64,000 nucleotides of DNA from an uncultured SAR86 cluster bacterium (GCA_902627055.1 CACOHS010000002.1:4380-68379); one strand, 5' to 3'; shown: positions 1 through 64,000, counted from the stretch's first letter. Program-made: numbers and translations. The notes: generated by a model from the letters alone, not told the origin.

Positions 1-617
1 TTGCTTATCCATCTCAGTTATCTGGCGATAAAGTATGGATAGCTGGTCTTTCTGATACAGGAATAACTCCTGAAGGTTTTAGTGGCGCTACTCCTCTTGG
101 ATATGCAGCTGAAGGCGGTCTCCAGGGGTTAAGTGAAAATTTTTCATGGTTTGATGCTTTTATGGGCAACATACCTGGCTCAGTTGGTGAAACATCTGTC
201 ATAGCTATTGCTATTGCTGCGATAATTTTGCTGGCAACTGGCGTGGCTTCCTATCGAATTATTTTAGGAACAATTATAGGTATGCTTGTTATGTCATCTA
301 TTCTAAATATTGTTGGGTCAGATACTAATCCAATGTTCCAAGTTCCATGGTATTGGCATTTTGTAATTGGTAGTTTTGCCTTTGGTCTTGTTTTTATGGC
401 CACAGAACCTGTTTCTGGCTCTGGAACGAATACAGGAAGATGGATCTACGGTGCATTAATTGGGGTTACAGTTGTTTTGATTAGAGTTATTAATCCAGCT
501 TTTCCTGAAGGAATGATGTTAGCTATATTGTTTGCAAATCTTTTTGCTCCTGTAATAGATCATATGGTTGTATCAAATAACATTGCTAAGCGTAAGAGGG
601 CTCTTTCATATGAATGA
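1..617 (+). CDS. nqrB: Na+-translocating NADH:quinone oxidoreductase subunit B, C-terminal part (5' end lies outside the window)
   Basis: Frame 3 is open from base 3. It translates [34 protein letters not shown]..., which carries the SGAT flavin-attachment motif, and runs into listed ORF 162..617. nqrCDEF follow directly. Confidence 0.9.
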
Positions 618-5083: not shown

Positions 5084-6670
5084 TTAGAATTGATTCATCG
5101 TATTATCTTTTCCAGATGCTTTAAGCGCAGCCTCACCAGCAAAGTATTCTTTATGATCGTCACCCATATCTGAACCGGCCATATTTTGATGTTTCACGCA
5201 TGCAATTCCTTGACGGATTTCTTTTCTTTGGACGCCTTTAACGTACCCAAGCATACCCATTTCACCAAAATATTTTTTAGCAAGATTGTCTGTTGATAAA
5301 GCTGCAGTATGGTATGTTGGCAGCGTAATTAAATGATGGAAAATTCCAGCTTCTCTAGCCGCATCGGCTTGAAAAGTTCTTATTTTTTCATCAGCTCGCA
5401 TAGCAAGTTCAGTGTCGTCATATTCTTCGTTCATCAAATTTTCTCTAGTATATTCAGATACATCTTCACCATCTTTGGACATGGCATCAAATACTTGTTG
5501 TCTAAAGTTAAGCGTCCAATTGAATGAAGGGCTGTTGTTGTAAACGAGTTTTGCATTTGGAATTACTTTTTTAATTTCATCCATCATAGCTCCAATTTGA
5601 CCAATATGAGGCTTTTCAGTTTCAATCCAAATTAAATCTGCACCGTTTTGTAAACTAGTAATGGAATCGAGTATACAGCGTGCTTCGCCTGTTCCTTCTT
5701 TAAAACGATATAAGTTACTTGGAAGTCGTTTCGGTCGAACAACCTTTCCATTTTGATTAATTAAAACATCTCCATGATTTAACTGAGAGGGTTCAAGCTC
5801 TTCAACATCTAAAAATGAATTATATTGATCTCCTAAATCACCGACTTCATGTGTTATAGCTATTTGTTTAGTCAATCCAGCGCCTAATGAATCAGTTCTT
5901 GCTACTATAACTCCGTCATCTACACCAAGCTCTAAAAAAGCGTATCTTACTGCATTAATTTTTGCGAGAAAGTCTGCATGTGGGACAGTTACTTTTCCAT
6001 CTTGGTGACCACACTGCTTTTCGTCTGAAACTTGATTTTCAATTTGAATGCAACATGCTCCTGCCTCAATCATTTGCTTTGCCATTAAATATGTTGCTTC
6101 TTCGTTACCGAATCCCGCATCAATATCAGCAATAATTGGAACAATATGTGTTTCAAAATCATCTATTTTCTTTTGAATTAATGGTTTTTCCTTATTACTA
6201 GCCTCATCTAGTTGTCTAAATAACCCTCCAAGCTCCCTTGCATCAGCTTGTCTTAAGAATGTATAAAGCTCTTTTATAAGAGCTGCAACTGAGGTTTTTT
6301 CATGCATAGATTGATCTGGAAGGGGCCCAAATTCAGATCGTAATGCAGCAACCATCCAACCTGAAAGATATAGATATTTCTTATCAGTCGTACCAAAATG
6401 TTTTTTAATCGAAATTAATTTTTGTTGGCCAATAAAACCATGCCAGCATCCTAATGATTGAGTGTAAGCTGATGGATCTTTATCGTATTCATCCATATCC
6501 TTTCTCATCAATGATGCTGTATATTTAGCAATGTCAATTCCTGATTTAAACTGATTTTGCAGTCTCATCCTTGCTGCGTACTCTGGATTTATAGGATCCC
6601 AGTTAGATTCGGAAAATTTTGGAATCTTATTTAACTTTTCTAATTCGGATGTAAAGTTTGTTTTTGACAT
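5084..6670 (-). CDS. aceA: isocitrate lyase (long, about 530 aa form)
   Basis: The ICL signature is present as EKQCGHQDGK, and the protein is ICL-like along its whole length. A strong GGGGGAG Shine-Dalgarno lies upstream of the ATG. Confidence 0.93.
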   Translation of the reverse strand: MSKTNFTSELEKLNKIPKFSESNWDPINPEYAARMRLQNQFKSGIDIAKYTASLMRKDMDEYDKDPSAYTQSLGCWHGFIGQQKLISIKKHFGTTDKKYLYLSGWMVAALRSEFGPLPDQSMHEKTSVAALIKELYTFLRQADARELGGLFRQLDEASNKEKPLIQKKIDDFETHIVPIIADIDAGFGNEEATYLMAKQMIEAGACCIQIENQVSDEKQCGHQDGKVTVPHADFLAKINAVRYAFLELGVDDGVIVARTDSLGAGLTKQIAITHEVGDLGDQYNSFLDVEELEPSQLNHGDVLINQNGKVVRPKRLPSNLYRFKEGTGEARCILDSITSLQNGADLIWIETEKPHIGQIGAMMDEIKKVIPNAKLVYNNSPSFNWTLNFRQQVFDAMSKDGEDVSEYTRENLMNEEYDDTELAMRADEKIRTFQADAAREAGIFHHLITLPTYHTAALSTDNLAKKYFGEMGMLGYVKGVQRKEIRQGIACVKHQNMAGSDMGDDHKEYFAGEAALKASGKDNTMNQF

Positions 6671-6793
6671 TTTTAATCTCCCCCAAAGATGTAGTGAATT
6701 AAAATTTATTAATCAATAATTGTCAATAATCAAAATAAATACCTTCAAAACAGTGTTTGAACAATTAAAATTTTGTAGTAATACTACTAAAAA

Positions 6794-17202: not shown

Positions 17203-20058
17203 ATGAATATCAAAAATTTACTTACGTTTGCAATAGTTTTTTCTACTGTTTTAAATAGTGAAACCTTAAGTGAGCCTACTTCATACTCCAAAGATTTATA
17301 TGCTGAAAAAATTCTATCAGGCACATATATTGATTCAATCGATCATCCTAATGAATTTTTAGATTTTAATTATGGAGATAGAGTAGCTAATCCATCGCAA
17401 ATTTCTAATGCAGTTTTAAAATGGTCTGAACAGTCAAATAAAATTAAGGTTGTTGAGTATGCAAAATCTCATGAAAACCGGCCTCTTTATGCTCTTTTTA
17501 TTTCATCACCCAAAAATATTAATAATCTTGATCAAATTAAAGAAAATATTTCACAACTATCTGACGCAAGAAAAATAAATGATCGTGAAGCAATTTCAAT
17601 TATAGACTCATTACCTGCAATAGCATGGATGGCATATTCTATTCATGGAAATGAAACATCTGGGGCAGATGCTGCTTTAGGAGTCATTTATCATCTTATT
17701 GCAAGCAATGATCCTTCTGTTGAGGATTTACTTAACAATATGGTGATTATTATTGATCCTATGATGAATCCTGATGGAAGAGATAGATTTGCAAAATCGT
17801 TGGAACAATACAGAGGCACCGCTCCAAATTATGATGATCAATCGCTATTACATACTGGAGATTGGCCATACGGAAGAACAAATCATTATTACTTTGATTT
17901 AAATAGAGACTGGTTCTACTTAACTCAACCTGAAACACAAGGAAGAGTAAAGTTAATTAATAAATGGAGACCTCAGATTCTTGTTGATGGGCATGAGATG
18001 GGCGCACAAGACACTTTTATGACAGGGCCTCCAAGAGAGCCTATTAATAAAAACATAGATGAAGATCTCATTAAATGGGGAAATGTATTTGCAAAAGATC
18101 AAGCTGAAGCATTCGATAAAAAAAATTGGCGTTTTTATACTGGAGAATGGCATGAGGATCTTTACCCAGGATATTCTTTTTATGTTCAATTCCGTGGCAG
18201 TCTCGGGATACTCTATGAACAATCAAGAATGTCAGAGGATGGCGTGAGAAGACCAGAGGGAACAATTCAATCTTATAGAGAATCAGTCCATCATCAATTT
18301 GTAAGCACTATCGAAAACCTTAATACCTTAAAAGTTAATACAAAGGCTATGTATAAAGATTATTGGGATGGTCGTAAATACAATATTTCTAAAGATAGCA
18401 AATATGCTAATCAAACTTTTGTTGTCTTACCATCTAGAAATCATGGACGCTTAAACGCATTAGTAGATAAATTAAAAGCCCAAGATATAGAGGTATTTAA
18501 AAATACTAAAACTTTGCTGGTAGATAAAATAGTAAATCAATTGGGTGATATTGAAGCTAATTATGAAATACCTGAAGGAAGTTTAATTATTCCAAATAGG
18601 CAGCCAGAGGCACCCCTTATAAAGGCAATATTAGAATTTGATGCAGAAATTGATGAATCAGTTCTTATAGAAGAACGACAAGAAAATCTTAGAGACGGTT
18701 CTTCTATAATGTATGACACAACTGCATTCAATTTCACAATGATGTATGGACTGCCAGCTGTAACTGCTCTCGAAAATATTGATAAAAATCTTGTTAATTG
18801 GGAGCCCTCCTCTACAAATATTGCTATAAATGATAATGCAATAATATGGGCTGTCGATGGTGATGATGATAGATCAGTTGCATTTGCAGCAAGACTGCTT
18901 GAAGAAAATGTTCAAGTACGAATCATTGATAAAGAATCGATACTTTCAGGTCAAAAGTTATCTCGAGGAAGTGTTGCTGTTATTGCTATGGATAACCCAG
19001 GCAATGGAAATTTAATTACTCAAATAAAAGAAATATCTGCTGATCTAAATATACCTGTTCAGTCAATAGAATCTGGCTTTGGACCAGAAGGATTGCCTGA
19101 CTGGGGTGGCAGGCATTTTAGATTATTAAAAAAACCCCAGATTGCCATTTTGGGGCATGGTGATTACAACTCTTATGATGTTGGAGTTAGTTGGTGGTCA
19201 TTAGATCATCATCTTGGAATAAGGCATAGCCTTGTAAACGGTTCTTTTGCTGGATATGCCGACTTGAGACGTTATAACACGCTAATTCTTCCAAGCGGAT
19301 ATCCAGATATGAATACTAACGAATTAAAAAACCTATCAGAATGGATAAGAAATGGCGGTACCCTAATTGCTCATAATAGATCGACAAGATTTTTATCTTC
19401 AAATGATGGTTTAGGCAATGCAAAACAAATACAAAATGTGTTAGAAAATATTAATGACTATAAATTTGATCTTTTGAGAGAGTTAATGGCGCTAGATGAT
19501 CAGATTGATAAAGATAAAGTTAATAGTAATGATTTCGACAATTTAATTGATTACCCATGGGAATTAAGTGAAACAGAAATGTCTCAGGAACAATTTGAGA
19601 TGAGGGATAAATGGCAATCAATTTTTATGCCATCTGGATCATTTGTAGCTGGGAGAACAGATCAAAAACATTGGTTAACTTTTGGTAGTCCAGAGATATT
19701 ACCAGTTCTGTACTCAAATTATCCTGTCTTAATGACGGGAAGTAACGTGGAAGCTGCTGTCAGAATAGGTGCGCTTGTTTCTAATGTAAATGAAGTTGAA
19801 CCAAAACAAATAAATTGGTCTCTCATTCCGCCTCAAAAAGATATAAAGGTAAGAATGAGTGGTTTAGTTTGGCCAGAAGCTGCACAAAGAATAGCAAATT
19901 CAGCCTATGTAACTAGAGAGAAAGTAGGTAAAGGACAAATAATTTTATTTTCTGGTGAGCCAAACTTCAGAGGTTCGACTAGAGGAACAAATAGAATCTG
20001 GCTTAATGCTGTAATATATGGTTCAGGCCTAGGCACAAATCCCTTAGTAGATCCCTAA
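17203..20058 (+). CDS. large secreted M14-family zinc carboxypeptidase-like protein (951 aa)
   Basis: Signal-like N-terminus. The M14 zinc motif is present as SIHGNETSG, followed by NPDGR and a downstream GHEMG. About 600 aa of C-terminal extension have no recognised domains. Confidence 0.75.
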   Translation: MNIKNLLTFAIVFSTVLNSETLSEPTSYSKDLYAEKILSGTYIDSIDHPNEFLDFNYGDRVANPSQISNAVLKWSEQSNKIKVVEYAKSHENRPLYALFISSPKNINNLDQIKENISQLSDARKINDREAISIIDSLPAIAWMAYSIHGNETSGADAALGVIYHLIASNDPSVEDLLNNMVIIIDPMMNPDGRDRFAKSLEQYRGTAPNYDDQSLLHTGDWPYGRTNHYYFDLNRDWFYLTQPETQGRVKLINKWRPQILVDGHEMGAQDTFMTGPPREPINKNIDEDLIKWGNVFAKDQAEAFDKKNWRFYTGEWHEDLYPGYSFYVQFRGSLGILYEQSRMSEDGVRRPEGTIQSYRESVHHQFVSTIENLNTLKVNTKAMYKDYWDGRKYNISKDSKYANQTFVVLPSRNHGRLNALVDKLKAQDIEVFKNTKTLLVDKIVNQLGDIEANYEIPEGSLIIPNRQPEAPLIKAILEFDAEIDESVLIEERQENLRDGSSIMYDTTAFNFTMMYGLPAVTALENIDKNLVNWEPSSTNIAINDNAIIWAVDGDDDRSVAFAARLLEENVQVRIIDKESILSGQKLSRGSVAVIAMDNPGNGNLITQIKEISADLNIPVQSIESGFGPEGLPDWGGRHFRLLKKPQIAILGHGDYNSYDVGVSWWSLDHHLGIRHSLVNGSFAGYADLRRYNTLILPSGYPDMNTNELKNLSEWIRNGGTLIAHNRSTRFLSSNDGLGNAKQIQNVLENINDYKFDLLRELMALDDQIDKDKVNSNDFDNLIDYPWELSETEMSQEQFEMRDKWQSIFMPSGSFVAGRTDQKHWLTFGSPEILPVLYSNYPVLMTGSNVEAAVRIGALVSNVNEVEPKQINWSLIPPQKDIKVRMSGLVWPEAAQRIANSAYVTREKVGKGQIILFSGEPNFRGSTRGTNRIWLNAVIYGSGLGTNPLVDP

Positions 20059-20071: not shown

Positions 20072-21820
20072 TTATGGATTTCTTAAATTATCAACCATTT
20101 GATTAACACTATCAGGTGGTTTTTTAAAGAAATAACATACACTAAACGCAACAATAAAGTTGATTATCATTCCTATAAAGCCAAATCCCTCTGGAGAGAT
20201 TCCTAAAAACCAATTTTCTGAAGAATTTAAATTAGTATTAATAAATTTAAAATTAATAATATAAATTGATGTGACAACCAATCCAGCAAGCATTCCAGCT
20301 ATAGCTCCTTCTTTATTTAACCTTTTATAAAATATACCCATAAATAATGCAGGAAAAATTGTTGCTGCAGCTAAACCAAAAGCAAATGCCACAACTTGAG
20401 CAACAAAACCTGGCGGATATATACCAAAAAGCCCAGCTATAAATATAGCAACTGCAGCAGAACATCGAGCATAAAATAGTTCTTGTTTTTCAGTAATCGA
20501 TGGCATAAAAGTTTTTTTCAGTAAATCATGTGAAACCGAAGCTGAAATAACTAGTAATAACCCTGCTGCAGTTGATAATGCTGCAGCTAAAGCTCCAGCA
20601 GCAACCAAAGCTATAACCCAGGCTGGTAATTTAGCTATTTCAGGATTCGCTAAAACCATAATATCTCTATCGATATAAACCTCATTTGAATTAGTCATGT
20701 CTGGTTCATTGTCTAAAGCTCTCTCTCCAAAAGAACCTCTATTATTATTAAATTTTGGCTTCACTTCATTTAATGCATTACCAGCAGAATATTGAATTAA
20801 GCCATCATCATTTTTATCTTTCCAAGCTATCAAACCAATATTTTCCCAATTTTTAAACCAACCTGGAGCTTCTTGATAGTTAACCTCTTGAACTGAATCA
20901 ATAAAATTCATTCTTGCAAAAGCTGAAACAGCTGGAGCTGTTGAATACAAAATAGCTATAAAAATTAGTGCGTAACCAGCAGATTTTCTTGCATCACTAA
21001 CTTTTGGCACAGTAAAGAATCTGACGATGACATGAGGAAGACCTGCTGTTCCAAACATCAATGCAGCTGTAATACAAAAAATATCGATTTTAGTTTTAGT
21101 ATTTTCTGTGTATGCATTAAATCCAAGTTCACCAGTAACCTTATCTAATTTATCTAATAAATATGTATCACTGTTTACAATAGTGTCGCCAAAGCCTAAC
21201 TGCGGGATTGGATTACCAGTCATCAAGATAGAAATAAAAATAGCTGGAACTAAGTAAGCAAAAATTAAAACGCAATACTGTGCAACTTGTGTATAAGTAA
21301 TGCCCTTCATGCCGCCAAGCACTGCATAGAAAAAGACTATACACATTCCAATAATTACACCTAAGTTAATATCAACCTCAAGGAATCTAGAAAAAACAAT
21401 GCCTACTCCTCTCATTTGACCAGCGACATAGGTAAATGAGATAAATATTAAGCATAAAACAGCAACTAATCTTGCTAAGTTTGAGTAGTATCTTGTGCCA
21501 ATAAAATCAGGAACTGTGTACTGACCAAATTTTCTTAAGTATGGTGCAAGCAACAGCGCTAATAGAACGTATCCACCAGTCCAGCCCATCAGATATACAG
21601 ATCCATCTTTACCTAGAAAGGCTATAAGGCCTGCCATCGAAATAAAAGAGGCTGCAGACATCCAATCTGCAGCCGTTGCCATACCATTAGCAATGGGATG
21701 AACACCCTTCCCTGCTATGTAAAAATCATTAGTTGAAGATGCGCGTGACCATATAGCTATTCCAATATATAAAGCGAAAGAAAAACCAACAAAAATATAT
21801 GTAAGTAGTTGCGCATCCAT
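20072..21820 (-). CDS. sodium:solute symporter family transporter (the type paired with DUF4212)
   Basis: 582 aa polytopic SSS-like protein with a central hydrophilic insert. It lies 5 nt downstream of a DUF4212-type small subunit gene. Confidence 0.8.
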   Translation of the reverse strand: MDAQLLTYIFVGFSFALYIGIAIWSRASSTNDFYIAGKGVHPIANGMATAADWMSAASFISMAGLIAFLGKDGSVYLMGWTGGYVLLALLLAPYLRKFGQYTVPDFIGTRYYSNLARLVAVLCLIFISFTYVAGQMRGVGIVFSRFLEVDINLGVIIGMCIVFFYAVLGGMKGITYTQVAQYCVLIFAYLVPAIFISILMTGNPIPQLGFGDTIVNSDTYLLDKLDKVTGELGFNAYTENTKTKIDIFCITAALMFGTAGLPHVIVRFFTVPKVSDARKSAGYALIFIAILYSTAPAVSAFARMNFIDSVQEVNYQEAPGWFKNWENIGLIAWKDKNDDGLIQYSAGNALNEVKPKFNNNRGSFGERALDNEPDMTNSNEVYIDRDIMVLANPEIAKLPAWVIALVAAGALAAALSTAAGLLLVISASVSHDLLKKTFMPSITEKQELFYARCSAAVAIFIAGLFGIYPPGFVAQVVAFAFGLAAATIFPALFMGIFYKRLNKEGAIAGMLAGLVVTSIYIINFKFINTNLNSSENWFLGISPEGFGFIGMIINFIVAFSVCYFFKKPPDSVNQMVDNLRNP

Positions 21821-21825
21821 TTGAG

Positions 21826-22080
21826 TTAGTTATCTTTACCAGACTTATCTTCATATTTTTTATCTAATTTATTCATCAGATAAATGTATATAAAAATTAA
21901 CAAAACAAAAAAATAAATGCTCCCTTGTTGAGCAAACCAAAATCCAAGCTTAAAACCACCTATTTGAAATTGATCTAAAAAATCAGACCATATAATTCCA
22001 AAACCAAATGAAACAAGGAACCAGATAATAAGTAAGATAGAAACAATTTTAAGGTTAGATCGCCAGTAATTTTTTTGCAT
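21826..22080 (-). CDS. DUF4212 small membrane protein (putative solute:sodium symporter small subunit)
   Basis: 84 aa with two TM helices and the FGFWFAQQGSIYFF-type block. It shows the canonical pairing with the downstream SSS gene. Confidence 0.75.
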   Translation of the reverse strand: MQKNYWRSNLKIVSILLIIWFLVSFGFGIIWSDFLDQFQIGGFKLGFWFAQQGSIYFFVLLIFIYIYLMNKLDKKYEDKSGKDN

Positions 22081-22141
22081 AAATCTACTTTATATAAATT
22101 GATAATTTAAGTCTGTAATTATTACACTTAATAGGAAAGAA

Positions 22142-23086
22142 CTATTCAACTGAACTTCGAATAATATTTAAATCTTTAGTCAATACGCTGCCAATAGCTG
22201 TATGAGATAGATTTTCTCTTGATATACCAATTACATCAGCGACTCTTTCGGCAGCATAAATACCGGTACAGTGTCCACCCATAAATTTTGTCATTCCATT
22301 ATCTTTAAGCCAATTAGCAGTTTTATCTATCACTTGATCTGTTGCTTTAAAAAGATGAAATCCACCTATGGCGCCATATACAGGAACATTTTGAATTGAT
22401 TGGAGTTTTTTTGCAGTATTAATAATTCCAGAATGCCCACAACCTGACATCATTATCCATCCATTATCAGTTAACATGCCTGCAGACTGATCATCAACTA
22501 TTATATCTGGAACAAATTCATTTGATTTAATATCTCTTACCACCAATCCTTCTGGACCATTATATGTTTCTACAGTTCTCTTAACTGTTCCGGTCGCATA
22601 AATATTTTTCGAAACTTCATAATGATTATCAAGAATTACAAAATTAATGCCTAAATTTTCAGCATCTTTTTTCCATTTCATAGAATCTGCATAATTTCCA
22701 GGGCCAACCTTAGATCCATCAGGAGCAAATCTTTGATTAAAAAAACCTCTTGCAACATAAACTTTAGTAAAAGCTTTGTTATTGATTTCCTTATATGTTT
22801 TTCTTAGTTTAAGAAGGCCCCCTGTATGATCACTGTGATAATGACTTAAAATAACTTTCTCAACTTTTGATAAATCTTTTCCAAGTATTTCAGCATTATG
22901 TAAAACAGTATCTTCATGAAATCCTGTATCAAAAAGCACAGATTCTTTATCGCTTTCATATAGCGCTGAGAAACTCCATTCTCCAAATCCGCCATAATTT
23001 GATATGTTTGTAGCTAAGACTGTTACTTCATAAGATGCATTTAAATTTATACAAAACAATGCAAAGAAAAGACTTATTTGCCTCAT
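22142..23086 (-). CDS. secreted MBL-fold metallo-hydrolase (COG1237-like)
   Basis: HYHSDHTGG metal motif, GCGHSGIIN and GGFHL blocks, and a signal peptide MRQISLFFALFCINLNA. I prefer the ATG at 23086 (4-nt gap to the upstream gene) over the listed 23116. Confidence 0.8.
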   Translation of the reverse strand: MRQISLFFALFCINLNASYEVTVLATNISNYGGFGEWSFSALYESDKESVLFDTGFHEDTVLHNAEILGKDLSKVEKVILSHYHSDHTGGLLKLRKTYKEINNKAFTKVYVARGFFNQRFAPDGSKVGPGNYADSMKWKKDAENLGINFVILDNHYEVSKNIYATGTVKRTVETYNGPEGLVVRDIKSNEFVPDIIVDDQSAGMLTDNGWIMMSGCGHSGIINTAKKLQSIQNVPVYGAIGGFHLFKATDQVIDKTANWLKDNGMTKFMGGHCTGIYAAERVADVIGISRENLSHTAIGSVLTKDLNIIRSSVE

Positions 23087-23090
23087 GAAG

Positions 23091-24107
23091 TTATAAGGTT
23101 GAAGGACCAATAGCAACCGGTCTAATCGATGACGCTGAGCTTCCTTTAACCATTAAAGGTAATATCATCACACAAGACAAATCTACGGCATCATCTGATA
23201 ATTTTTTAAGATTAAAATTTTCAAGCGTGTGGACGCCAGCCTGAGTTAAAAAATAATGATGTACCGGAAATGCCATATTTTCCGGGGTTCCTTCTGGAGC
23301 AGGGATTGGATTATTTGGATCAGATAAAGCATCTACAAAAGGAGTATCTAAACCAACAGCGACAACTTTTTTTGATGCAAGATATTCAGCCAATGAGTAT
23401 GAAATTCCCGGAGCCATTGAATAATATAGTTTTAGCTCATCTGGATCCTGGTAGTTATCACTCCAGCCCGTATAAATCAAAACAACATCTCCCGGCAATA
23501 TACCCCTAGATTTTAAGGTTGATGATTCAATTGATTTTTTAATATCATTAATAGAAACATATTCACCAGCTGACATAGACTCTCCATCATAGGCATATTT
23601 TTTTACATTAATTAATATTGCAGTAGTAATAATAGGAGGAACGGTTTCCATGCCAAGTTTTAATAATGGCGATTCATTTGATGGCTTAACCTCATTACCT
23701 TTTAAACCACCAAAAAATGTTACCTTTGATATATCTAATTCACTTTCACCATCCCAGGGTTCTTCTAAATGACCAAAATGCCCTAAAGCGTCCATCTGTG
23801 TGCCTTGATTCCCATCATTAACATCTTCATTCAATACATCCATAGTAAAAATTTGAACAGTGTTGGGCATTGCTGATGCTGGTAAGAATTTCGGCTCATA
23901 CTCACCTGCAAACGGCGATAAAGGCATAGATTTAGTCCTTAAGTATGATAGTTCGTAACTATTTGATTTAGGGTTAGATATTAAATCTGAGCATCTTGAC
24001 CAAGTTTCAGGACCTAAGATATTTGTCATTCCTCTTTGCGATGATATGTCTGATGAATATAGACTTGTTGAGTAAAGAAAGATTATCAATAAGAAAAATT
24101 TAGACAT
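23091..24107 (-). CDS. secreted cyclase-family (kynurenine-formamidase-like) protein with a degenerate metal motif
   Basis: Signal peptide present. The motif NQGTQMDALGHF occupies the position of the family motif HxGTHxDxPxH. Confidence 0.65.
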   Translation of the reverse strand: MSKFFLLIIFLYSTSLYSSDISSQRGMTNILGPETWSRCSDLISNPKSNSYELSYLRTKSMPLSPFAGEYEPKFLPASAMPNTVQIFTMDVLNEDVNDGNQGTQMDALGHFGHLEEPWDGESELDISKVTFFGGLKGNEVKPSNESPLLKLGMETVPPIITTAILINVKKYAYDGESMSAGEYVSINDIKKSIESSTLKSRGILPGDVVLIYTGWSDNYQDPDELKLYYSMAPGISYSLAEYLASKKVVAVGLDTPFVDALSDPNNPIPAPEGTPENMAFPVHHYFLTQAGVHTLENFNLKKLSDDAVDLSCVMILPLMVKGSSASSIRPVAIGPSTL

Positions 24108-24109
24108 GA

Positions 24110-25777
24110 TTAATAGATTATGGATGATTTAAGTTCAACATCTGACAGTTGCCAGATTTCTTGATGTTTTGTTAATGCTTCATTAGACAATTCATTATTA
24201 CCAAGAGCTTTATAAGCTTTGTAGAGCCCATAATATGACCAACCATTCCGCGGGTAGTCTTTTAAATCTTGATTAAAAACATTTATTGCTTCTTCAAAAT
24301 CTTTGTTTAGCAATAAAGCATGTCCTAATGACTGTCTTGTTGGGTAGTACCAAAATTCAGGTTCTCTATATGGCAGAGCATCTTGCGCTTCTACAGCCAT
24401 CTGAAAATGCATTATTGACGCATCTATATTCATGTTAGCTAATTCAATTTGACCCCTTGCAAGATGATTTGCAATTTCAAGTAACTTATCTGATGGTTGT
24501 CCAGCTTTTATAATAACTTTAATCTCAGGAGCATCTTTTAATGGCAATATTTTTTCTTGTTCTATAATGGCTTGCTCAATATTACCTGTCGATGCGAAGG
24601 CAATACTTCGCGCATAGTGATATAAACCTAAAGAAAATTTGAATTCATCTATCGGTTTCTCATATGCCAGAATTTCATCCCATTTAGCGAATCTTACATA
24701 AGAAAGTAGAGGGATAGTATGAAAGAATTCTAAAAATGGAATTTGTTTTATTTGCTCTATGCGAACATATTTAGAAACCTTCAAAGCAGATTCTATTGAT
24801 AACTCACTTCGACCTTCCATAGTAGATGCAGCCCACAAGAAATGAACATTATGAGGGTAATACAAAGCAGGGTAGAAACCCTGAGCATTACATTGAGCAA
24901 TATAATCTTCATCAACTTTTGCAGCTTCGATATTTACAAGTGACGCATCATGATATCTTCCTATACGCCAATAAATGTGAGCAGGCATATGAACAAGATG
25001 CCCTGCCCCAGGAACAATTTTTCCTAGCCTATCAGCAGGACCTTCAGCCCTACCTGGATTTGAAGAAGCCTCCACAGCATGAATATATAAATGTATGGCA
25101 AGAGGATGATCTGGATTTTTTGCTAGTACACTCTCAAGGCTATCAATGACTTTAATAGTATCTGGTTTTGGATCACCGTCTTCAGCCCAGTAATTCCATG
25201 GCATTGTATTCATTAAAGCTTCAGCAAATAATGATGCTGCATCGTTGTCGTCTGGAAAGGTCTTTGACAATTTTTCCATTGCATTTGCATATGCTATATC
25301 TAAAGGATCTCGATTAGATTCTATATTTCCATCATATCTGGATGATAAAGCTGATATGTAAGCCTGTTCTTTTTCAGAAACTGTTTCGGATAATGCAATA
25401 GCTATATTAATAGCCTTAAAGGCTGCAATTCTGTTTTCAGGAGCCATAATAACTTTTCCATCACTATTTACATTGATATTTGGTCCTAATGCTAATGCTT
25501 CACCCCAGTAACACATTGCACAACTTGGATCTAACTTCTGTGCTGCTTTAAAACTCCTTATTGATTCAGCATGGTTAAATGCAAATGCCATGATCATTCC
25601 TTGATCAAAATATCTTTGAACCCCTTCAACATTTGAAGAAATTTTATGGGTATGGTCTCCCAATCCTTCCAATAATGGAGCGCCGGCTTTTTCTATCAAC
25701 ATCTGATCAGAATTATTGTTGCAAGCGGATAGAAAAAGCACTGAAAATGTTAATACTAAATATTTAATGTTATTCAT
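24110..25777 (-). CDS. TPR-containing lipoprotein of unknown function with a His-rich conserved core
   Basis: Lipobox VLFLSAC. TPR-like helical repeats. His-rich blocks DHPLAIHLYIHAVE and GAGHLVHMPAHIYWRIGRYH. Confidence 0.7.
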   Translation of the reverse strand: MNNIKYLVLTFSVLFLSACNNNSDQMLIEKAGAPLLEGLGDHTHKISSNVEGVQRYFDQGMIMAFAFNHAESIRSFKAAQKLDPSCAMCYWGEALALGPNINVNSDGKVIMAPENRIAAFKAINIAIALSETVSEKEQAYISALSSRYDGNIESNRDPLDIAYANAMEKLSKTFPDDNDAASLFAEALMNTMPWNYWAEDGDPKPDTIKVIDSLESVLAKNPDHPLAIHLYIHAVEASSNPGRAEGPADRLGKIVPGAGHLVHMPAHIYWRIGRYHDASLVNIEAAKVDEDYIAQCNAQGFYPALYYPHNVHFLWAASTMEGRSELSIESALKVSKYVRIEQIKQIPFLEFFHTIPLLSYVRFAKWDEILAYEKPIDEFKFSLGLYHYARSIAFASTGNIEQAIIEQEKILPLKDAPEIKVIIKAGQPSDKLLEIANHLARGQIELANMNIDASIMHFQMAVEAQDALPYREPEFWYYPTRQSLGHALLLNKDFEEAINVFNQDLKDYPRNGWSYYGLYKAYKALGNNELSNEALTKHQEIWQLSDVELKSSIIY

Positions 25778-25835
25778 TCTTCAAGCCTCTAAAAAATAAA
25801 TTTAATGATCTCATTGTTGCATTTATTTTCATTAT

Positions 25836-25850
25836 TGAGAATCATTCTCA
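25836..25850. promoter_or_regulatory. candidate Fur box (perfect 7-1-7 palindrome)
   Basis: TGAGAATCATTCTCA compared with the 7-1-7 Fur consensus TGATAATnATTATCA gives one symmetric mismatch per arm. It lies centrally in the 139-nt divergent region between the TPR lipoprotein gene and the 129-aa membrane protein gene. Confidence 0.5.
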
Positions 25851-25916
25851 TTGTTTCAATATTAGTATAATATTTATACATACCTTAATTAAGAGGTATA
25901 CATTCGGAGAATAAAA

Positions 25917-26306
25917 ATGAACACGGAATATGAAATTTGGAATTTAATGTATTTAGGTTTTATATCAAATGCCATGTTTATGGTTGCTATGGTACTGCTC
26001 TCATGGCTAGGTTTTAGATTTGCAGCAGCAATTGCAGCTGATCCTGAGACACCAATCATGGCAAAAATCTTCTCAACTGCGTTTTATCTAATTGTTGGAA
26101 TAATGTTCTATAACACTGCTCAGATTGGGGGAGCGATAATTAGTGGCGCTGCTGAAATGATGGCTGCTTTACCAGAAATATCATCAAGAGGAGCAGACTT
26201 GATAGAAAGAGTAGAGTCTGGGTTTATCCCGGGCGGATTAATATCCACAGCATTGAATGTTGTGATAGTTCTTTTTCAATTAGCAATTACATGGATTAAA
26301 AGATAA
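25917..26306 (+). CDS. hypothetical membrane protein (129 aa)
   Basis: About 3-4 hydrophobic helices and no recognisable family. It is followed by a strong intrinsic terminator. Confidence 0.55.
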   Translation: MNTEYEIWNLMYLGFISNAMFMVAMVLLSWLGFRFAAAIAADPETPIMAKIFSTAFYLIVGIMFYNTAQIGGAIISGAAEMMAALPEISSRGADLIERVESGFIPGGLISTALNVVIVLFQLAITWIKR

Positions 26307-27317: not shown

Positions 27318-27575
27318 ATGAAATTATCAACAGCATTAAAAAAGTTAAATTCTGATAAAGATATAGAAAATTTCTTGAAAGATTTATGTACGCCTGCAGA
27401 AATCGAAGCCATGCAAGAAAGATGGGAAGTCGCTCAGCTTTTATATAAGGGTAATTCAACTTATAGAGATATTGCATCAAAACTTAATACCTCCACTGCC
27501 ACAGTTACCAGAGTTGCTAGATTTTTATTTAAAGAATCTAACAAAGGATATTTGAATCTACTAAAGAAGGATTAA
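27318..27575 (+). CDS. TrpR-like YerC/YecD family DNA-binding protein
   Basis: 85 aa with LCTPAEIEAMQERWEVAQLL and the helix-turn-helix YRDIASKLNTSTATVTRVARFL. Its stop lies 3 nt before the hisG start. Confidence 0.8.
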   Translation: MKLSTALKKLNSDKDIENFLKDLCTPAEIEAMQERWEVAQLLYKGNSTYRDIASKLNTSTATVTRVARFLFKESNKGYLNLLKKD

Positions 27576-27578: not shown

Positions 27579-28445
27579 ATGACAAAAAAAATTACCATTG
27601 CAATTCAGCGAAAAGGCAGGCTATTTGATAGCAGTAAGAATTTATTAATTAAATCTGGAATAAATTTTTCTACTAGCGGCGATAAATTATTGGCTCGATC
27701 CTCAAATATGAATATAGATATATTATTAGTAAGGGATGACGACATACCCTCTCTAGTATCTAAAGGAGTAGCTGATCTAGGGATTGTTGGTCAGAATGTA
27801 TTGGCTGAGCAAGTCGCTTCAAACAAAAAAATTACAGCTAAATCAGTTTTAAATCTAGGGTTTTCTAAATGCAGACTAGCGTTTGCTAAACCAATGAATT
27901 CTAGAATCAGATCATTAAAGAATAAAATCATTGCTACCTCTTATCCTGGTTTAGTAAAGAAATTCTTGAAGGCTAAAAATATTAATGCTGAAGTAATTAA
28001 AATTAATGGTTCTGTTGAACTTACTCCATATATAGGAATTGCTGATTGCATTTGCGACCTTGTTTCATCTGGGGCAACACTTGAAGCAAATAATTTAATT
28101 GAATTTAAAACTCTAATGGATTCAGAAGCAGTTCTTATCGCATCTAGCTCGTACAAAAAGATTAAAGATAAAAGTATTCTTGATTTAATTAAAAGATTTG
28201 AGGGTGTAATTAATGCTGCAGAAAGCAAATATGTAATGCTAAATGCGGAAACAAAATCAATCGATAAAATATGTAAATTACTTCCAGGCGCAGACTCACC
28301 AACTATTATTCCATTACAACAGCAAGATAAGGTTGCAATTCATGCACTTTGTAGTGAGCCTGTTTTTTGGGAGACGATGGAAAAACTCAAATCTAATGGC
28401 GCATCTTCAATCTTAGTTATGCCTGTCGAAAAAATTCTCAATTAA
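27579..28445 (+). CDS. hisG: ATP phosphoribosyltransferase, long form
   Basis: 288 aa. It has the LTIAIQRKGRL-type N-terminus, DLVSSGATLEAN, and the C-terminal regulatory domain. Confidence 0.93.
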   Translation: MTKKITIAIQRKGRLFDSSKNLLIKSGINFSTSGDKLLARSSNMNIDILLVRDDDIPSLVSKGVADLGIVGQNVLAEQVASNKKITAKSVLNLGFSKCRLAFAKPMNSRIRSLKNKIIATSYPGLVKKFLKAKNINAEVIKINGSVELTPYIGIADCICDLVSSGATLEANNLIEFKTLMDSEAVLIASSSYKKIKDKSILDLIKRFEGVINAAESKYVMLNAETKSIDKICKLLPGADSPTIIPLQQQDKVAIHALCSEPVFWETMEKLKSNGASSILVMPVEKILN

Positions 28446-30317
28446 ATGAAGCTAATTAATCGATCAAAATCTAATTCTTCCATTAACTGGCAATCAAGTG
28501 TTAATGATATACAGTACGTTGAAAATATAGTTCTGAGATATAAAGAATTAGTTTTAAAAAATGGAACTAAAGCCTTTAATTATATAAATGAAGAATTAAA
28601 TCTTCCTAAAGTTTCATCATTTAAAGTGCGAACATCGGAAATTAATAGTGCCGAGAATTCAATTTCAGATGATTTAAAACAAGCAATATTAAATTCTGCC
28701 AACAACATCAAAATAATTTGTGAAAATGAAAAAAAGAGTTTAGTTTCATCTTCCATAGAAACTACTAAAGGAATATCCATTTGGAAAGAATTTAGGCCAA
28801 TTGAATCTGTCGGAATTTATGTTCCAGGAGGAACAGCTCCATTAATTTCATCATTCTTAATGCAACTAATTCCAGCTTCCATTGCTGGGTGTAAAAATAT
28901 AATAGTTTGCACTCCCCCTTCTTCATCAGGATCGATAGCTCCAGAAATATTATGGATAGCAAAAATATTTGGCATTTCGAATATTTACAAGGTTGGTGGT
29001 TCTCAGGCTATATTTGCGATGGCATATGGAACAACAGTTATTCCAAAAGTAGATAAGATATTTGGGCCAGGAAATGCCTATGTAAACGCAGCAAAAAAAA
29101 TCTGTTCTGATGATGTGGCTATTGATTTACCTGCTGGGCCAAGTGAGGTCATGGTTGTATCAAATGATATTTCCAAGGTTAATCTAATAGCAGCTGACGT
29201 TCTGTCTCAACTTGAACATGATTCAGCAGCTAGGGCTTTTGTTCTTTCAAAAAATTTACCTTTATTAAATGGTTTAAAAAAAGAAGTTAAAAAGCAACTT
29301 GCCTCTCTCTCTAGGCAAAATATTCTTAAAGAAAGTTTATCCAACTTAAAGCTTATTAAATATAAGTCATTCAATGACTGTATAAATTTAATAAATGAAT
29401 GTGCTCCTGAACATTTAATTTTGTTGGATGATGATTATGCTCATCTATTAGCAAAAATTAATAATGCTGGATCTATTTTTTGCGGCTCCTTGAGCCCTGA
29501 ATCTTTTGGTGATTATTCTTCTGGAACAAATCACGTTCTACCAACCAATGGTATGGCAAAAGTTTTTTCTGGTTTAGGTATTAGAGACTTTGGTAAACAG
29601 ATAAGTGTTCAAACTGCTTCATCTGAAGGATTTTTAAATATTAAAGATACCGTAATTTCTATGGCAAATGCTGAAAATCTTGATGCCCATGCAAAAGCTG
29701 TAAAAATTCGCGAGAATCTTGCAAACGAAAAATCTCGTTCAAGAATATCTACAGAAATAAGAAAAACAAATGAGACATCTATCTACATAAATCTAAATTT
29801 AGATGGGACAGGAAAATATAATATTAATACGGGTATTGATTATCTCGATCATTTACTAGAGCAATTTTCTAAACATGGCTCTATAGATTTGAATATTACT
29901 TGTCTTGGAGATTTAGAAATAGATGAACATCATTCAATTGAAGACGTTGCTATTACTTTAGGATCAGCAATAAATAAAGCTCTTCAAGATAGAAATGGAA
30001 TTTCTAGATATGCATCCAATGAAACTCTGGTTATGGATGAAGTGAAATGTAATGTCAGTATTGATTTATGCACCAGAAGATTTCTTAAGTTTAAGTGCTC
30101 TGAATTAAGGGAGATGGTTGGAGATTTTCCAACCGAAATGTTTGAACATTTTTTTGTCTCACTTATAAATGCTGCTGCCTTTACATGTCACATTGAAACT
30201 GATGGCAAAAACTCTCATCACCTGCTTGAAGCAACATTCAAAACATTTGCTAGATGTCTCAGATCTGCAATTGTTGTTGAGTCAAATGAGATTGTATCAA
30301 CTAAAGGCTTAATGTGA
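28446..30317 (+). CDS. hisD-hisB: fusion protein: histidinol dehydrogenase (about aa 1-430) joined to imidazoleglycerol-phosphate dehydratase (about aa 431-623)
   Basis: HisD blocks: YVPGGTAPL, SQLEHDS, APEHLIL, GDYSSGTNHVLPT and AHAKAVKIR. These are followed, with no stop or real linker, by IGPD blocks: IRKTNETSIYINLNLDG, IDEHHSIEDVAITLG and GKNSHHLLEATFKTFARCL. Confidence 0.9.
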   Translation: MKLINRSKSNSSINWQSSVNDIQYVENIVLRYKELVLKNGTKAFNYINEELNLPKVSSFKVRTSEINSAENSISDDLKQAILNSANNIKIICENEKKSLVSSSIETTKGISIWKEFRPIESVGIYVPGGTAPLISSFLMQLIPASIAGCKNIIVCTPPSSSGSIAPEILWIAKIFGISNIYKVGGSQAIFAMAYGTTVIPKVDKIFGPGNAYVNAAKKICSDDVAIDLPAGPSEVMVVSNDISKVNLIAADVLSQLEHDSAARAFVLSKNLPLLNGLKKEVKKQLASLSRQNILKESLSNLKLIKYKSFNDCINLINECAPEHLILLDDDYAHLLAKINNAGSIFCGSLSPESFGDYSSGTNHVLPTNGMAKVFSGLGIRDFGKQISVQTASSEGFLNIKDTVISMANAENLDAHAKAVKIRENLANEKSRSRISTEIRKTNETSIYINLNLDGTGKYNINTGIDYLDHLLEQFSKHGSIDLNITCLGDLEIDEHHSIEDVAITLGSAINKALQDRNGISRYASNETLVMDEVKCNVSIDLCTRRFLKFKCSELREMVGDFPTEMFEHFFVSLINAAAFTCHIETDGKNSHHLLEATFKTFARCLRSAIVVESNEIVSTKGLM

Positions 30318-55017: not shown

Positions 55018-55058
55018 ATGTATATGATTTCATAAATGAAAATTAAAACCATAGTAAG

Positions 55059-55071
55059 AATGATTATCATT
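55059..55071. promoter_or_regulatory. candidate Fur box
   Basis: AATGATtATCATT is a perfect palindrome equal to the core of the 19-bp Fur consensus GATAATGATAATCATTATC. It lies in the divergent region, about 80 nt upstream of the ferritin-like gene. Confidence 0.45.
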
Positions 55072-55150: not shown

Positions 55151-55585
55151 ATGAGAGAATTAAAAACAAAAGAAGTATGTGATATTTTAAATGAAATTAT
55201 GGAGTATGAGTTAGCTGGTGTTGTACGTTATACGCATTCCTCTCTTATGGTTACTGGTCCATATAGGATACCCATAGTAACTTTTTTAAAAGAACAAGCT
55301 TCTGAATCAATGATTCATGCTCAACAAGCTGGCGAGTTACTTGTAGGGTTAGATGGACACCCAAGCCTCAAAGTTGCAAAAATAGTTGAGACACATAGGC
55401 ACTCAATAAAAGATATTTTAGAAGAAGGCATGGAGCACGAGCTTCATGCATTAAGTTTATATAAAAAACTATTATCCAGTGTAGAAAATGCTTCAGTGTA
55501 TCTTGAGGAATATGCAAGAAGCATGATAGGAGAAGAGGAACAGCATACCTTAGAATTAAAAGCTATGTTGAAAGACTATGGTTGA
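55151..55585 (+). CDS. bacterioferritin-like (ferritin superfamily) protein
   Basis: It aligns by eye with E. coli Bfr: E20 matches E18, M54/H56 match M52/H54, E97 matches E94, and E129/H132 match E127/H130. Ser53 occupies the position of Glu51. Confidence 0.65.
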   Translation: MRELKTKEVCDILNEIMEYELAGVVRYTHSSLMVTGPYRIPIVTFLKEQASESMIHAQQAGELLVGLDGHPSLKVAKIVETHRHSIKDILEEGMEHELHALSLYKKLLSSVENASVYLEEYARSMIGEEEQHTLELKAMLKDYG

Positions 55586-62835: not shown

Positions 62836-63714
62836 TTAGCTTTTTTTAAAAATATTAAGAAAAATTGCGGGAGTAGAGTCCATATAGTCCTTAAAGTCTG
62901 GTCGTCTATTTAATGATCTTTTATCCATCATTGAAACTGAAGCAATTGCTATCAGAGCGTACATCACAATACAGCCAATCAAAAGCCATGCAAATGAAAT
63001 ACTTGAAGCTATTGAAAATACAAATAAGCTAAACCAGAAAAGTATTTCACCAAAATAATTGGGATGTCTTGAATAAAACCATAATCCTGTCTGCATAGTT
63101 TTTGATTCGTTTATGTTATTTCTAAAGTTATACATCTGTTGATCAGAAATAATTTGTATTATCACCGCAATGACAGATAACAAGGCAGCAACTGCATCAA
63201 GAATATTTAATGCATTACCAGGGTAAGCAAGAGCAAATATCATCGGTAGTAACGCTAAATATACACATATTGTAGGTATCAGATGGATGGATCCAAAATC
63301 GACAATAAAATACTCAAACTTATTTTTAGTTTTTGCTTTCATCATGACATAACGCCAATCTTCATGTGAAAAGCCATCCCAAGATCTCATCCAATTATAG
63401 GTAAGACGAATAGCCCAAAAAAGCAAGCATGCGTGCATCAACAGAGCTCTCTGAGTATTACCTGCAGCAGCAACATCCGACCAGCACATTACAGCTAGAA
63501 CAACTGGAATAACTGACCAAAAAGCGTCATACCAACTTGAATTGTTAAATATTATGCTGAGCAAATAAATGAAGATCGTGGCTTCAACATGACATATAAA
63601 TACTTTAAGAGGTAATGAGAAATTAGATGTAAGCTCCCAAGTAAGCAGCATTGAATATATGCAAGCTATGTATCCAATTGTTATCACGGATAGATGTAAT
63701 AGTTTTGTCTTCAT
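62836..63714 (-). CDS. DUF1295 / steroid-5-alpha-reductase-like membrane protein
   Basis: Polytopic membrane protein with the GLWFYSRHPNYFGE block typical of DUF1295 / ICMT-like reductase folds. Confidence 0.75.
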   Translation of the reverse strand: MKTKLLHLSVITIGYIACIYSMLLTWELTSNFSLPLKVFICHVEATIFIYLLSIIFNNSSWYDAFWSVIPVVLAVMCWSDVAAAGNTQRALLMHACLLFWAIRLTYNWMRSWDGFSHEDWRYVMMKAKTKNKFEYFIVDFGSIHLIPTICVYLALLPMIFALAYPGNALNILDAVAALLSVIAVIIQIISDQQMYNFRNNINESKTMQTGLWFYSRHPNYFGEILFWFSLFVFSIASSISFAWLLIGCIVMYALIAIASVSMMDKRSLNRRPDFKDYMDSTPAIFLNIFKKS

Positions 63715-64000
63715 AGTGAATTGTTTATTTTTTTTGGTTGATGATAATCATTATTTATAGGAAGCAAAGGGATTGATTGGAATTCCACTAAATCTTTAAT
63801 TCTGTTAGGTAATGAATGATATAAAGTATTACGTTGAACTAAATTAAGATCTAGTTCATCAGTAATTTTAAGAACATCTTCTAAAAATAACTCTTGACCA
63901 AATGCTGCGCCGGCAGACCTAGTTATCGATTCATTCATAAGCACTCCTCCAATATCATTAATTCCTGCAGATAAAAGGAATTTTAACCCTGGAAGACCCA
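63711..64000 (-). CDS. radical-SAM FO synthase (CofH / FbiC C-terminal-like), 3' part only; the gene continues beyond the window
   Basis: The frame is open to the window edge. It translates ...GLPGLKFLLSAGINDIGGVLMNESITRSAGAAFGQE...VQRNTLY, resembling the GANDxGGTLMEExISRxAG...QRxTxY C-terminus of CofH/FbiC. ATGA overlap with the DUF1295 start. Confidence 0.55.
   Translation of the reverse strand, partial: GLPGLKFLLSAGINDIGGVLMNESITRSAGAAFGQELFLEDVLKITDELDLNLVQRNTLYHSLPNRIKDLVEFQSIPLLPINNDYHQPKKINNSL

Follow-up and report, generated by a model that had tools for sequence, protein, structure and literature searches.

The DNA analysed here, hereafter the window, is a stretch of 64,000 nt from an uncultured SAR86 cluster bacterium (GCA_902627055.1, CACOHS010000002.1:4380-68379), in which five minus-strand genes are packed between positions 20072 and 25777. 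In the direction of transcription, they encode a 555-aa lipoprotein belonging to a large, uncharacterised TPR-like family (TPR protein; 24110-25777), a 338-aa cyclase-family protein (23091-24107), a 314-aa COG1237-type MBL-fold hydrolase (MBL; 22142-23086), an 84-aa small symporter subunit (DUF4212; 21826-22080) and the 582-aa large subunit of a VC_2705-family Na+/solute symporter (SSS; 20072-21820). The intergenic gaps are 5, 61, 4 and 2 nt from the SSS end to the TPR gene. Note that the 4-nt gap assumes that MBL starts at the ATG at 23086, which matches the 314-aa gene calls in relatives; the mechanical ORF start is a TTG at 23116, upstream of this ATG. The string is flanked by an M14 carboxypeptidase gene (17203-20058, plus strand; 951 aa, predicted exported), convergent with SSS, and by a gene for a small membrane protein of 129 aa (25917-26306, plus strand), divergent from the TPR gene across a 139-nt intergenic region (25778-25916). 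An earlier note, made from the sequence of the window, had described five tightly packed genes with these gaps and assigned each to a family; the coordinates bear out the packing, and the labels hold upon domain searches (PF00474/TIGR03648 for SSS, PF13937/TIGR03647 for DUF4212, PF00753 for MBL, PF04199 for the cyclase-like protein and C-terminal TPR matches for the lipoprotein).

The three upstream proteins had been proposed to be secreted, in agreement with their N-termini as read from the sequence: the TPR protein carries a lipobox (L-S-A-C), and the cyclase-like protein and MBL start with short, hydrophobic, signal-like stretches that would place both hydrolases in the periplasm. The only domain matches of the TPR protein are its C-terminal TPRs. 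Its family is large, with more than 8000 close matches (1761 clusters at 50% identity, E<=1e-30), and the His-rich blocks noticed earlier are real features of it, as H229, H233, E236, H260, H263, M264, H267, N282, H309, Y470 and E472 are invariant across members at 35-54% identity. Searches of the PDB with this protein, both by sequence and by fold, returned generic TPR matches only. A TTC38-like identity was considered but found no support: with an approximate human TTC38 sequence as query, hhalign gave a 40% probability over the C-terminal TPRs only, without the His-rich core. For the divergent small membrane protein, no Pfam or NCBIfam family was matched.

The only intergenic DNA upstream of the string contains, as previously noticed, a perfect 15-bp palindrome, TGAGAATGATTCTCA (25836-25850), composed of the half-sites TGAGAAT and ATTCTCA on either side of a single G (7-1-7). 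Palindromy alone is unremarkable, since perfect 7-1-7 palindromes, whatever their sequence, number 15 in the window. Fur boxes of Gammaproteobacteria follow the 19-bp sequence GATAATGATAATCATTATC, also read as the 7-1-7 inverted repeat TGATAATnATTATCA, and the palindrome matches this half-site model at 12 of 14 positions. It also overlaps a sigma-70-like promoter match of the TPR gene (25831-25859, minus strand; TTGAAA, 17 nt, AATAAT), filling the 17-nt spacer and reaching base 1 of the -10 hexamer. This promoter match scores 10/12 and is the top-listed of three such sites in a 6.5-Kbp scan, in which promoter-like sites as a whole are no more numerous than in shuffled sequence. The motif TGAGAAYnATTCTYA is kept in at least eight species, at a distance of 59-67 nt from the start codon of the small membrane-protein gene, although these species are related and their orthologous sites do not count as independent evidence. 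The palindrome is kept in L008, L009/L010, L011/L023, L015, L018, L021, L022 and L063, and its distance upstream of this start codon (ATG) is 67 nt in the window, L011, L015, L021, L022, L023 and L063. The sequence block next to it is kept in all relatives. The palindrome itself is degenerate in L001/L016, L007/L017 and L019/L020, indicating that the regulation is not universal.

The palindrome appears to be a real Fur-type operator, judging from its conservation, its overlap with the promoter match and the kind of genes that the same motif precedes elsewhere in SAR86. Over the whole window, the 7-1-7 model is matched eight times against 2.17 expected, a count reached in none of 100 shuffles, and in SAR86 DNA the density of motif matches outside coding sequence is 4.4 times that within it. 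TonB-dependent receptor and ferritin-like genes are classic Fur targets; among the best non-coding matches, we found three tandem sites in front of a TonB-dependent receptor gene (L003), a single site in front of another one (L013), and sites in front of ferritin-like genes (position 55055 of the window and 4270 of L013). The candidate operator differs from the Fur boxes of other Gammaproteobacteria by its half-site, GAGAAT instead of GATAAT, and by serving a divergent gene pair without assigned function. This symmetric departure would be expected if the palindrome bound a different regulator, or if it were a conserved element of the small gene's promoter, its resemblance to a Fur box then arising from AT-rich sequence. 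The fit to the 19-bp E. coli consensus is indeed poor (13/19 by eye in the best register), the only site of the window within three mismatches of that consensus lies at 63737, perfect 7-1-7 palindromes are common as mentioned above, and motif counts are inflated by AT-rich intergenic DNA. However, it is the variant half-site (AAGAAT / GAGAAT ... ATTCTCA) that recurs three times in tandem before the TonB-dependent receptor gene and again upstream of ferritin-like genes of two distant SAR86 genomes, and, together with the excess over shuffled sequences, this makes a non-Fur origin unlikely. Pfam was run on a subset of the ORFs of the window, and none of these was identified as fur. We take Fur as the probable binding protein, from the motif resemblance and the genes preceded: iron-loaded Fur would bind the repeat and repress both the TPR and the small membrane-protein genes, and low iron would relieve this repression.

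The cyclase-like protein belongs to PF04199 but does not read as a kynurenine formamidase or isatin hydrolase. The canonical H-x-G-T-H-x-D-x-P-x-H motif of these enzymes is absent, the protein reading N-Q-G-T-Q-M-D-A-L-G-H; both leading His are replaced in 17 of 17 aligned homologues, and the score against the TIGR03035 arylformamidase model is 16 bits for a cut-off of 223. Its top solved match, by sequence as well as by fold (with a low-confidence model, pLDDT 57), is 5IBZ (MGS0169), aligned over the C-terminal two-thirds of the protein at ~16% identity (E=1e-6 to 1e-10). MGS0169, whose motif is Q-x3-Q-x-D-x3-H, is a carboxylesterase stimulated by Mn/Mg; it prefers pNP-acetate and short acyl groups, and its branch also comprises the trans-dienelactone hydrolase of Pseudomonas reinekei MT1 (PMC5341072). 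In the window protein, the corresponding motif is N100-x3-Q104-x-D106-x3-H110, i.e. both proteins have amides in place of the two canonical His and keep the Asp and the last His, the first residue being Asn here and Gln in MGS0169; in addition, H283/H284 and E296 align to H286 and E299 of 5IBZ. Despite the low identity and the predicted export of the window protein, which set it apart from MGS0169, the hydrolytic role suggested earlier is plausible by analogy, with a putative place in the MGS0169 esterase branch. Its partner, MBL, matches PF00753 at 49 bits with an intact H-x-H-x-D-H motif (SHYHSDH), and its closest solved structures are the COG1237-type hydrolases 2P4Z (E=2e-22), 3H3E and 7DCK (up to E=5e-20), which it matches over most of its length. 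It differs from them by its predicted signal peptide and its cyclase-like gene partner. The names given by the depositors to these three structures provide no function.

The two remaining genes would encode a complete, self-contained two-subunit symporter. Both subunits score far above the cut-offs of the VC_2705-family models (SSS, TIGR03648, 866.2 bits against 320.75; DUF4212, TIGR03647, 108 bits against 26.05), and the small subunit lies immediately upstream of the large one, an order also seen at 78 of 80 loci from metagenomes. In the earlier reading, no member of the string had an assigned substrate, which is not correct for this family: fitness phenotypes on D,L-lactate and D-alanine have been reported for its members (bioRxiv 10.1101/072470). 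Relatives of SSS at 62-87% identity are widespread and adjoin genes for acetyl-CoA synthetase (Acs), a CrbS-like kinase, DUF294 and RNase_T proteins, and the next-best models for SSS are those of the monocarboxylate transporters MctC and ActP. By analogy with these systems, the window symporter most likely imports small monocarboxylates or their analogues (acetate, lactate, pyruvate, D-alanine). Compared with the VC_2705-family pairs Sama_1522/1523 and Psest_0346/0347, the window locus lacks the usual acetyl-CoA synthetase, CrbS/CrbR-like two-component, DUF294 and RNase_T neighbours. The acetate permease pair ActP/YjcH (DUF485), a member of the CrbS/R acetate regulon (PMC5715377), similarly associates an SSS-family monocarboxylate permease with a small membrane subunit, but the window SSS scores 189 for an ActP cut-off of 750 and its small subunit is DUF4212, not DUF485.

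We then compared gene neighbourhoods in 51 SAR86 species (10 close and 41 distant) and at 80 metagenomic SSS loci. All relatives share a backbone made of the his operon, a TrpR-like gene, an NAD-dependent dehydrogenase gene, the small membrane-protein gene and the TPR gene, downstream of which the gene content varies. On this his-operon backbone, we observed TPR without the other string genes (L008-L010), TPR-cyclase (L016), TPR-cyclase-MBL (L001, L002, L011, L012 and L023) and, in the window, L007, L017 and L018, the full five-gene string. In L019-L022 the string is split before DUF4212 by two extra genes, one of them antisense, and in L011 and L023 an S9 peptidase gene stands in place of DUF4212-SSS. 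One locus, L063, has cyclase and MBL followed by one extra gene and DUF4212-SSS, without TPR. The TPR gene adjoins the cyclase gene in 9/10 close and 3/41 distant species, and MBL adjoins it, in either order, in 8/10 and 5/41. DUF4212, together with SSS, lies within 10 Kbp of the cyclase gene in seven of the ten close species, downstream of MBL and on the same strand, and in none of the 41 distant ones. None of the 80 metagenomic SSS loci has an MBL, cyclase, TPR or M14 gene nearby. The M14 gene bounds the variable slot on its far side; it is found within 10 Kbp of the cyclase gene in 6/10 close and 17/41 other SAR86 species, and the cyclase-MBL pair in SAR86 often lies near M14 and S9 peptidase genes.

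As the downstream content varies on a shared backbone and the linkage to the transporter is absent from distant species, the five genes are not one conserved unit, an outcome that the earlier note had itself named as counting against its reading. The TPR lipoprotein gene is the core, syntenic gene of the locus, and the arrangement of transporter and hydrolases is neither ancestral nor general. The palindrome is intact in relatives with TPR alone and lost in L007 and L017 despite the full string, and its constant partner is the small membrane-protein gene: it belongs to the TPR/small-gene promoter, not to the five-gene string.

These data bear directly on the model of the earlier note, in which the string is a single iron-regulated acquisition pathway: the TPR protein would bind a metal-chelating or ester/amide-linked organic acid, the cyclase-like protein and MBL would process it in the periplasm, and DUF4212-SSS would import the product. 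The tight spacing on a single strand, the lack of a terminator in the 61-nt gap of the window strain, the Fur-type candidate operator upstream and the identical gene order in L007, L017 and L018 are consistent with it, as is the match between a nearest characterised relative that is a short-acyl esterase and a transporter family that handles short carboxylates. However, every sub-combination of the genes is found in relatives, the transporter is missing from the locus in all distant species and unlinked at all metagenomic loci, an antisense gene and a terminator break the string in L019-L022, and two of the genomes with the full string have lost the palindrome. With three modules linked in a few close relatives only, we consider a single pathway for all five genes very improbable.

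With gaps of only 2 and 4 nt behind the TPR gene, the cyclase-like and MBL genes are probably read from the TPR promoter. DUF4212 starts 61 nt behind MBL, and no terminator-like hairpin was found in this junction (22081-22141) in the window strain, so that read-through from MBL into DUF4212-SSS may occur there. In L019-L022 and L063, i.e. five of the seven transporter-linked close species, a CCCGC-N4-GCGGG hairpin followed by a T-run is present just before DUF4212.

Hydrolases and transporter could nonetheless be functionally linked in the closest clade, as seven of its ten species keep the transporter and L063 keeps it without TPR. In such a scheme, the cyclase-like esterase and MBL would free a small carboxylate, e.g. 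acetate, from a periplasmic ester, to be scavenged by the adjacent VC_2705-type symporter, the TPR protein and the Fur box being bystanders. The pNP-acetate preference of MGS0169 and the acetyl-CoA synthetase genes beside transporter relatives argue for it. Against it, the linkage is limited to one clade, in which common descent would account for it just as well. The junction itself is not constant and harbours a terminator, and L001, L011, L014, L031, L036, L064 and L074 have the cyclase-MBL pair but not the transporter. We therefore judge this partial coupling, freed of iron and TPR, to be quite unlikely.

Overall, we consider it reasonably probable that three independent modules have come to lie side by side, in a lineage-specific way, to form the string of this SAR86 genome, with a Fur-type operator on the TPR/small-gene promoter. 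The first would be the His-rich TPR-like lipoprotein gene with its divergent small membrane-protein gene, under their common 139-nt control region; the second, an accessory pair of exported metallohydrolases, cyclase-like and COG1237-type MBL, which travel together in SAR86; and the third, the DUF4212-SSS pair, a Na+-coupled symporter of the VC_2705 family that may function on its own.

The string is made up of five ORFs on the minus strand, which encode, from left to right, the SSS transporter (20072-21820), the DUF4212 protein (21826-22080), the COG1237-type MBL hydrolase (22142-23086), the cyclase-family protein (23091-24107) and the TPR protein (24110-25777), the family of each being confirmed by Pfam and NCBIfam. 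The intergenic gaps in the same order are 5, 61, 4 and 2 nt; note that the 4-nt gap presupposes an MBL start at ATG 23086, in agreement with the 314-aa gene calls in relatives. The tight packing and the families described in the earlier note are thus borne out. The TPR protein carries a lipobox (LSAC) in its N-terminus, and the N-termini of the cyclase-like protein and the MBL are signal-like. Window G+C is ~33%, and no riboswitch or sRNA is indicated in the region since Rfam, at gathering thresholds, gave no match over the window. The window's relatives are SAR86-cluster genomes, obtained from single cells or assembled from metagenomes. This cluster ranks among the most abundant heterotrophs of the surface ocean and, as it is uncultured, regulatory inferences must come from sequence.

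The earlier note had read the five genes as one pathway. Homologues of the TPR and cyclase-like proteins were looked up and the surrounding DNA was read, and all window proteins were mapped onto 80 cyclase-centred loci from species-representative genomes. All close relatives share a backbone consisting of the his operon, a TrpR-like gene, an NAD-dependent dehydrogenase, the small membrane protein and TPR, and differ in what lies 3' of TPR: none of the string's other genes (L008-L010), the cyclase alone (L016), cyclase-MBL (L001, L002), cyclase-MBL followed by an antisense S9 peptidase (L011, L012, L023) or the full window-type string (L007, L017, L018). In L019-L022, an antisense gene for a 147-155-aa TPR-like protein and a 180-aa gene separate MBL from DUF4212 within the string, and L063 has cyclase-MBL, the 180-aa gene and DUF4212-SSS, with the TPR gene absent. 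Over 51 SAR86 species, DUF4212 lies within 10 kb of the cyclase gene in 7/10 of the close group (cyclase at least 80% identical) versus 0/41 of the others; MBL adjoins it in 8/10 versus 5/41, TPR adjoins it in 9/10 versus 3/41, and an M14 peptidase occurs within 10 kb in 6/10 versus 17/41. With such variable gene content and modular inheritance, the five proteins are not to be read as one pathway, a reading that thereby falls by a refuting condition which the earlier note itself had set; the tight spacing here reflects modules juxtaposed in a variable slot, and the string illustrates that close packing of genes in a streamlined genome is no evidence of a pathway.

On the backbone side, the window has a 623-aa his-operon ORF (28446-30317), apparently a histidinol dehydrogenase-imidazoleglycerol-phosphate dehydratase fusion because syntenic orthologues of the same length in relatives carry PF00815 and PF00475. 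An 85-aa ORF (27318-27575) is separated by 3 nt from the ORF that follows it at the position of hisG (27579-28445). Its syntenic counterpart, likewise of 85 aa, belongs to the Trp_repressor family (PF01371) in all relatives and precedes hisG there; the product may regulate the his operon. On the other side of the string, an exported 951-aa M14 carboxypeptidase is encoded at 17203-20058, and such a gene is found near the cyclase-like gene in 23 of the 51 SAR86 species. A gene for an S9 prolyl-oligopeptidase-like protein is often close to the M14 and cyclase-like genes, and in L011/L023 it sits where the window has DUF4212-SSS.

The adjacency of cyclase and MBL is kept despite a swapped order (L014, L035), and the two genes stay together when an M14 gene intervenes (L028, L029, L038), a persistence which argues for a functional pair. 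The cyclase-like protein has the motif N100-x3-Q104-x-D106-x3-H110 and is without the two leading canonical His. Its nearest structure is 5IBZ (MGS0169), a carboxylesterase that Mn and Mg stimulate and whose motif is Q-x3-Q-x-D-x3-H (PMC5341072); at the first position of this motif the window protein has Asn for Gln. The structure model of the cyclase-like protein is poor (pLDDT 57) and served solely as confirmation that 5IBZ is the best match by fold. Among cyclase homologues outside SAR86 (Acidobacteriota, Burkholderiales; 45-56% identity), we found no recurrent informative neighbour. In the MBL, the HxHxDH motif is intact; the PDB listing gives no functional name for the protein's closest structures, and a literature search on one of these, 7DCK, returned nothing.

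We then consider the transporter. In a metagenome scan centred on SSS (80 loci, 62-87% identity, on contigs of 32-69% G+C), DUF4212 is directly upstream of SSS in 78/80 loci, and none of MBL, cyclase, TPR or M14 was found within 7 kb of the 80 SSS genes. The neighbours that recur are a CrbS-like SLC5-PAS-kinase-receiver protein (19 of the 80 loci), DUF294 (16), an RNase_T exonuclease (11), acetyl-CoA synthetase (11) and a LuxR-type response regulator (9), and on low-G+C contigs the pair is flanked by a TauE-family gene and lgt. Mutant fitness links DUF4212/SSS pairs to the utilisation of D,L-lactate in Shewanella and D-alanine in Pseudomonas stutzeri (bioRxiv 10.1101/072470), so that the claim that no member has an assigned substrate does not hold for the transporter's relatives. 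By the survey and these assignments together, DUF4212-SSS is a module complete in itself, whose substrate class is reasonably well indicated. A subunit of the NQR/Rnf family (PF03116) is encoded at window 162-617; should it form part of a Na+-translocating Nqr or Rnf complex, it would fit Na+-coupled transport.

At the junction with MBL, a hairpin (CCCGC-N4-GCGGG) with a T-run immediately precedes DUF4212 in L019-L022 and L063. The same hairpin is absent from the window-type 61-nt gap, which makes read-through from MBL into the symporter possible, only in the window strain and three sister genomes. A coupling of esterase and carboxylate uptake restricted to the window's clade seems to us rather unlikely. 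The MBL-DUF4212 slot (about 11970-13105 in L019-L022; 12041-12583 in L063) encodes a secreted 180-aa protein with no Pfam match, and the antisense protein in L019-L022 is a secreted 147-155-aa TPR protein. The terminator hairpin that follows them stands no more than some 25 nt ahead of the DUF4212 ATG, leaving little space for a separate promoter.

The 139-nt region upstream of the string (25778-25916), which separates the TPR gene from the divergent gene of the small membrane protein (25917-26306, plus strand), contains the palindrome TGAGAATGATTCTCA at 25836-25850, perfect as the earlier note had it. Palindromy by itself is unremarkable, since the window has 15 perfect 7-1-7 palindromes. The pattern TGAGAAYnATTCTYA is kept in L008, L009/L010, L011/L023, L015, L018, L021, L022 and L063, at 59-67 nt from the ATG of the small membrane protein (exactly 67 nt in seven cases) and 54-61 nt from that of TPR, and is degenerate in L001/L016, L007/L017 and L019/L020. 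Relatives with TPR alone keep it too, as does L063, in which the cyclase gene takes TPR's place. From this distribution, the palindrome belongs to the divergent control region and not to the five-gene string, of which it had been taken as the front. It occupies the 17-nt spacer of a promoter match, TTGAAA/AATAAT (10/12, top-listed, with two others tying), and agrees with the 7-1-7 Fur model at 12/14 positions, a model that has 8 matches in the window versus 2.2 expected. Over 1.2 Mb of SAR86 DNA, non-coding sequence has a 4.4-fold higher density of near-matches than coding sequence, and the best non-coding ones are three sites in tandem that precede a TonB-dependent receptor (L003 6621/6643/6661), a single site before another receptor (L013 8812) and sites before ferritin-like genes in the window and L013. 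Conservation, position in the promoter spacer and recurrence before receptor and ferritin-like genes speak for a function of the site, which is probably an operator of the Fur type whose half-site is the variant GAGAAT, Fur being the inferred binder.

Other sites of this kind were noted. The window site before the ferritin-like gene, TAAGAATGATTATCA (55055-55069), lies 82 nt upstream of that 144-aa gene (55151-55585; PF00210), and the equivalent site at L013 4270 lies 68 nt upstream of the orthologue. The window site that best fits the E. coli Fur consensus of 19 bp, GTTGATGATAATCATTATT (63737-63756; 16/19), is 28 nt upstream of a DUF1295/steroid-reductase-like membrane protein (62836-63714). 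The closest window match to TGATAATnATTATCA (22617-22631; 1 mismatch) falls inside the MBL coding sequence and, given this location, is probably a chance match. On the SAR86-like contig L003, the tandem copies (6621-6675) are directly upstream of a 683-aa receptor, and a 66%-identical TPR homologue is found beside ferrochelatase, nitroreductase, a second receptor and an alpha/beta-hydrolase. The small membrane-protein gene is tandemly duplicated in L007 (6940-7865), L015 (2035-2950) and L063 (9060-9865), the copies being 28% identical. Literature searches that joined SAR86 to Fur boxes or to iron-response transcriptomics turned up nothing at gene level for these proteins.

The TPR lipoprotein belongs to a very large family (at least 8000 homologue matches listed; 1761 clusters at 50% identity, E ≤ 1e-30), present in SAR86, cyanobacteria, Nitrosococcus, Acidobacteriota and others, whose examined members are named only 'tetratricopeptide repeat protein' or 'hypothetical protein'. 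Among members at 35-54% identity, the residues H229, H233, E236, H260, H263, M264, H267, N282, H309, Y470 and E472 are invariant, a pattern that resembles a metal or catalytic site. In several members, an Abhydrolase_1 domain is fused to one or the other terminus (P0245, P0250, P0266, P0280, P0286; L175 6001-7725). The AlphaFold model has a pLDDT of 75, falling below 50 in the His-rich core (264-326), and Foldseek and a PDB profile search returned generic TPR proteins only and no functional analogue. A likeness to TTC38 was set aside, as hhalign against a human TTC38 sequence gave 40% probability over the C-terminal TPRs only. The family's gene surroundings in Nitrosococcus, Chlorogloeopsis and an Acidobacteriota genome have no neighbour in common; in Nitrosococcus halophilus, the gene has an OprB porin gene on one side and a norCBQD-like cluster on the other.

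In the mechanism that we take as most likely, iron-loaded Fur would repress both divergent promoters, those of the small membrane-protein and TPR genes. Low iron would lead to production of the TPR lipoprotein and, via the 2- and 4-nt junctions, of the two periplasmic hydrolases, and in the window strain transcription may run on into the Na+/monocarboxylate symporter. In a bolder reading, the SAR86 TPR protein would be a Fur-controlled periplasmic metalloprotein, induced by low iron, which in some lineages joins the cyclase-like/MBL pair, with the carboxylate product passing to the adjacent symporter; we hold this joint reading to be distinctly unlikely as a whole, and within it the lipoprotein would provide a first regulatory handle for an exported family that is very large and uncharacterised. 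The Fur-type operator, the VC_2705 symporter and the cyclase-like and MBL hydrolases are of known kinds; the interest lies in the SAR86 Fur-box variant and in the inferred iron-linked regulation of the very large, His-rich family of TPR proteins. Should the operator prove real, its GAGAAT half-site variant would be usable for mapping iron regulons in metagenomes, a widespread His-rich TPR-like family would be flagged as iron-responsive, and a recurrent pair of exported hydrolases would be marked out for biochemical screening.
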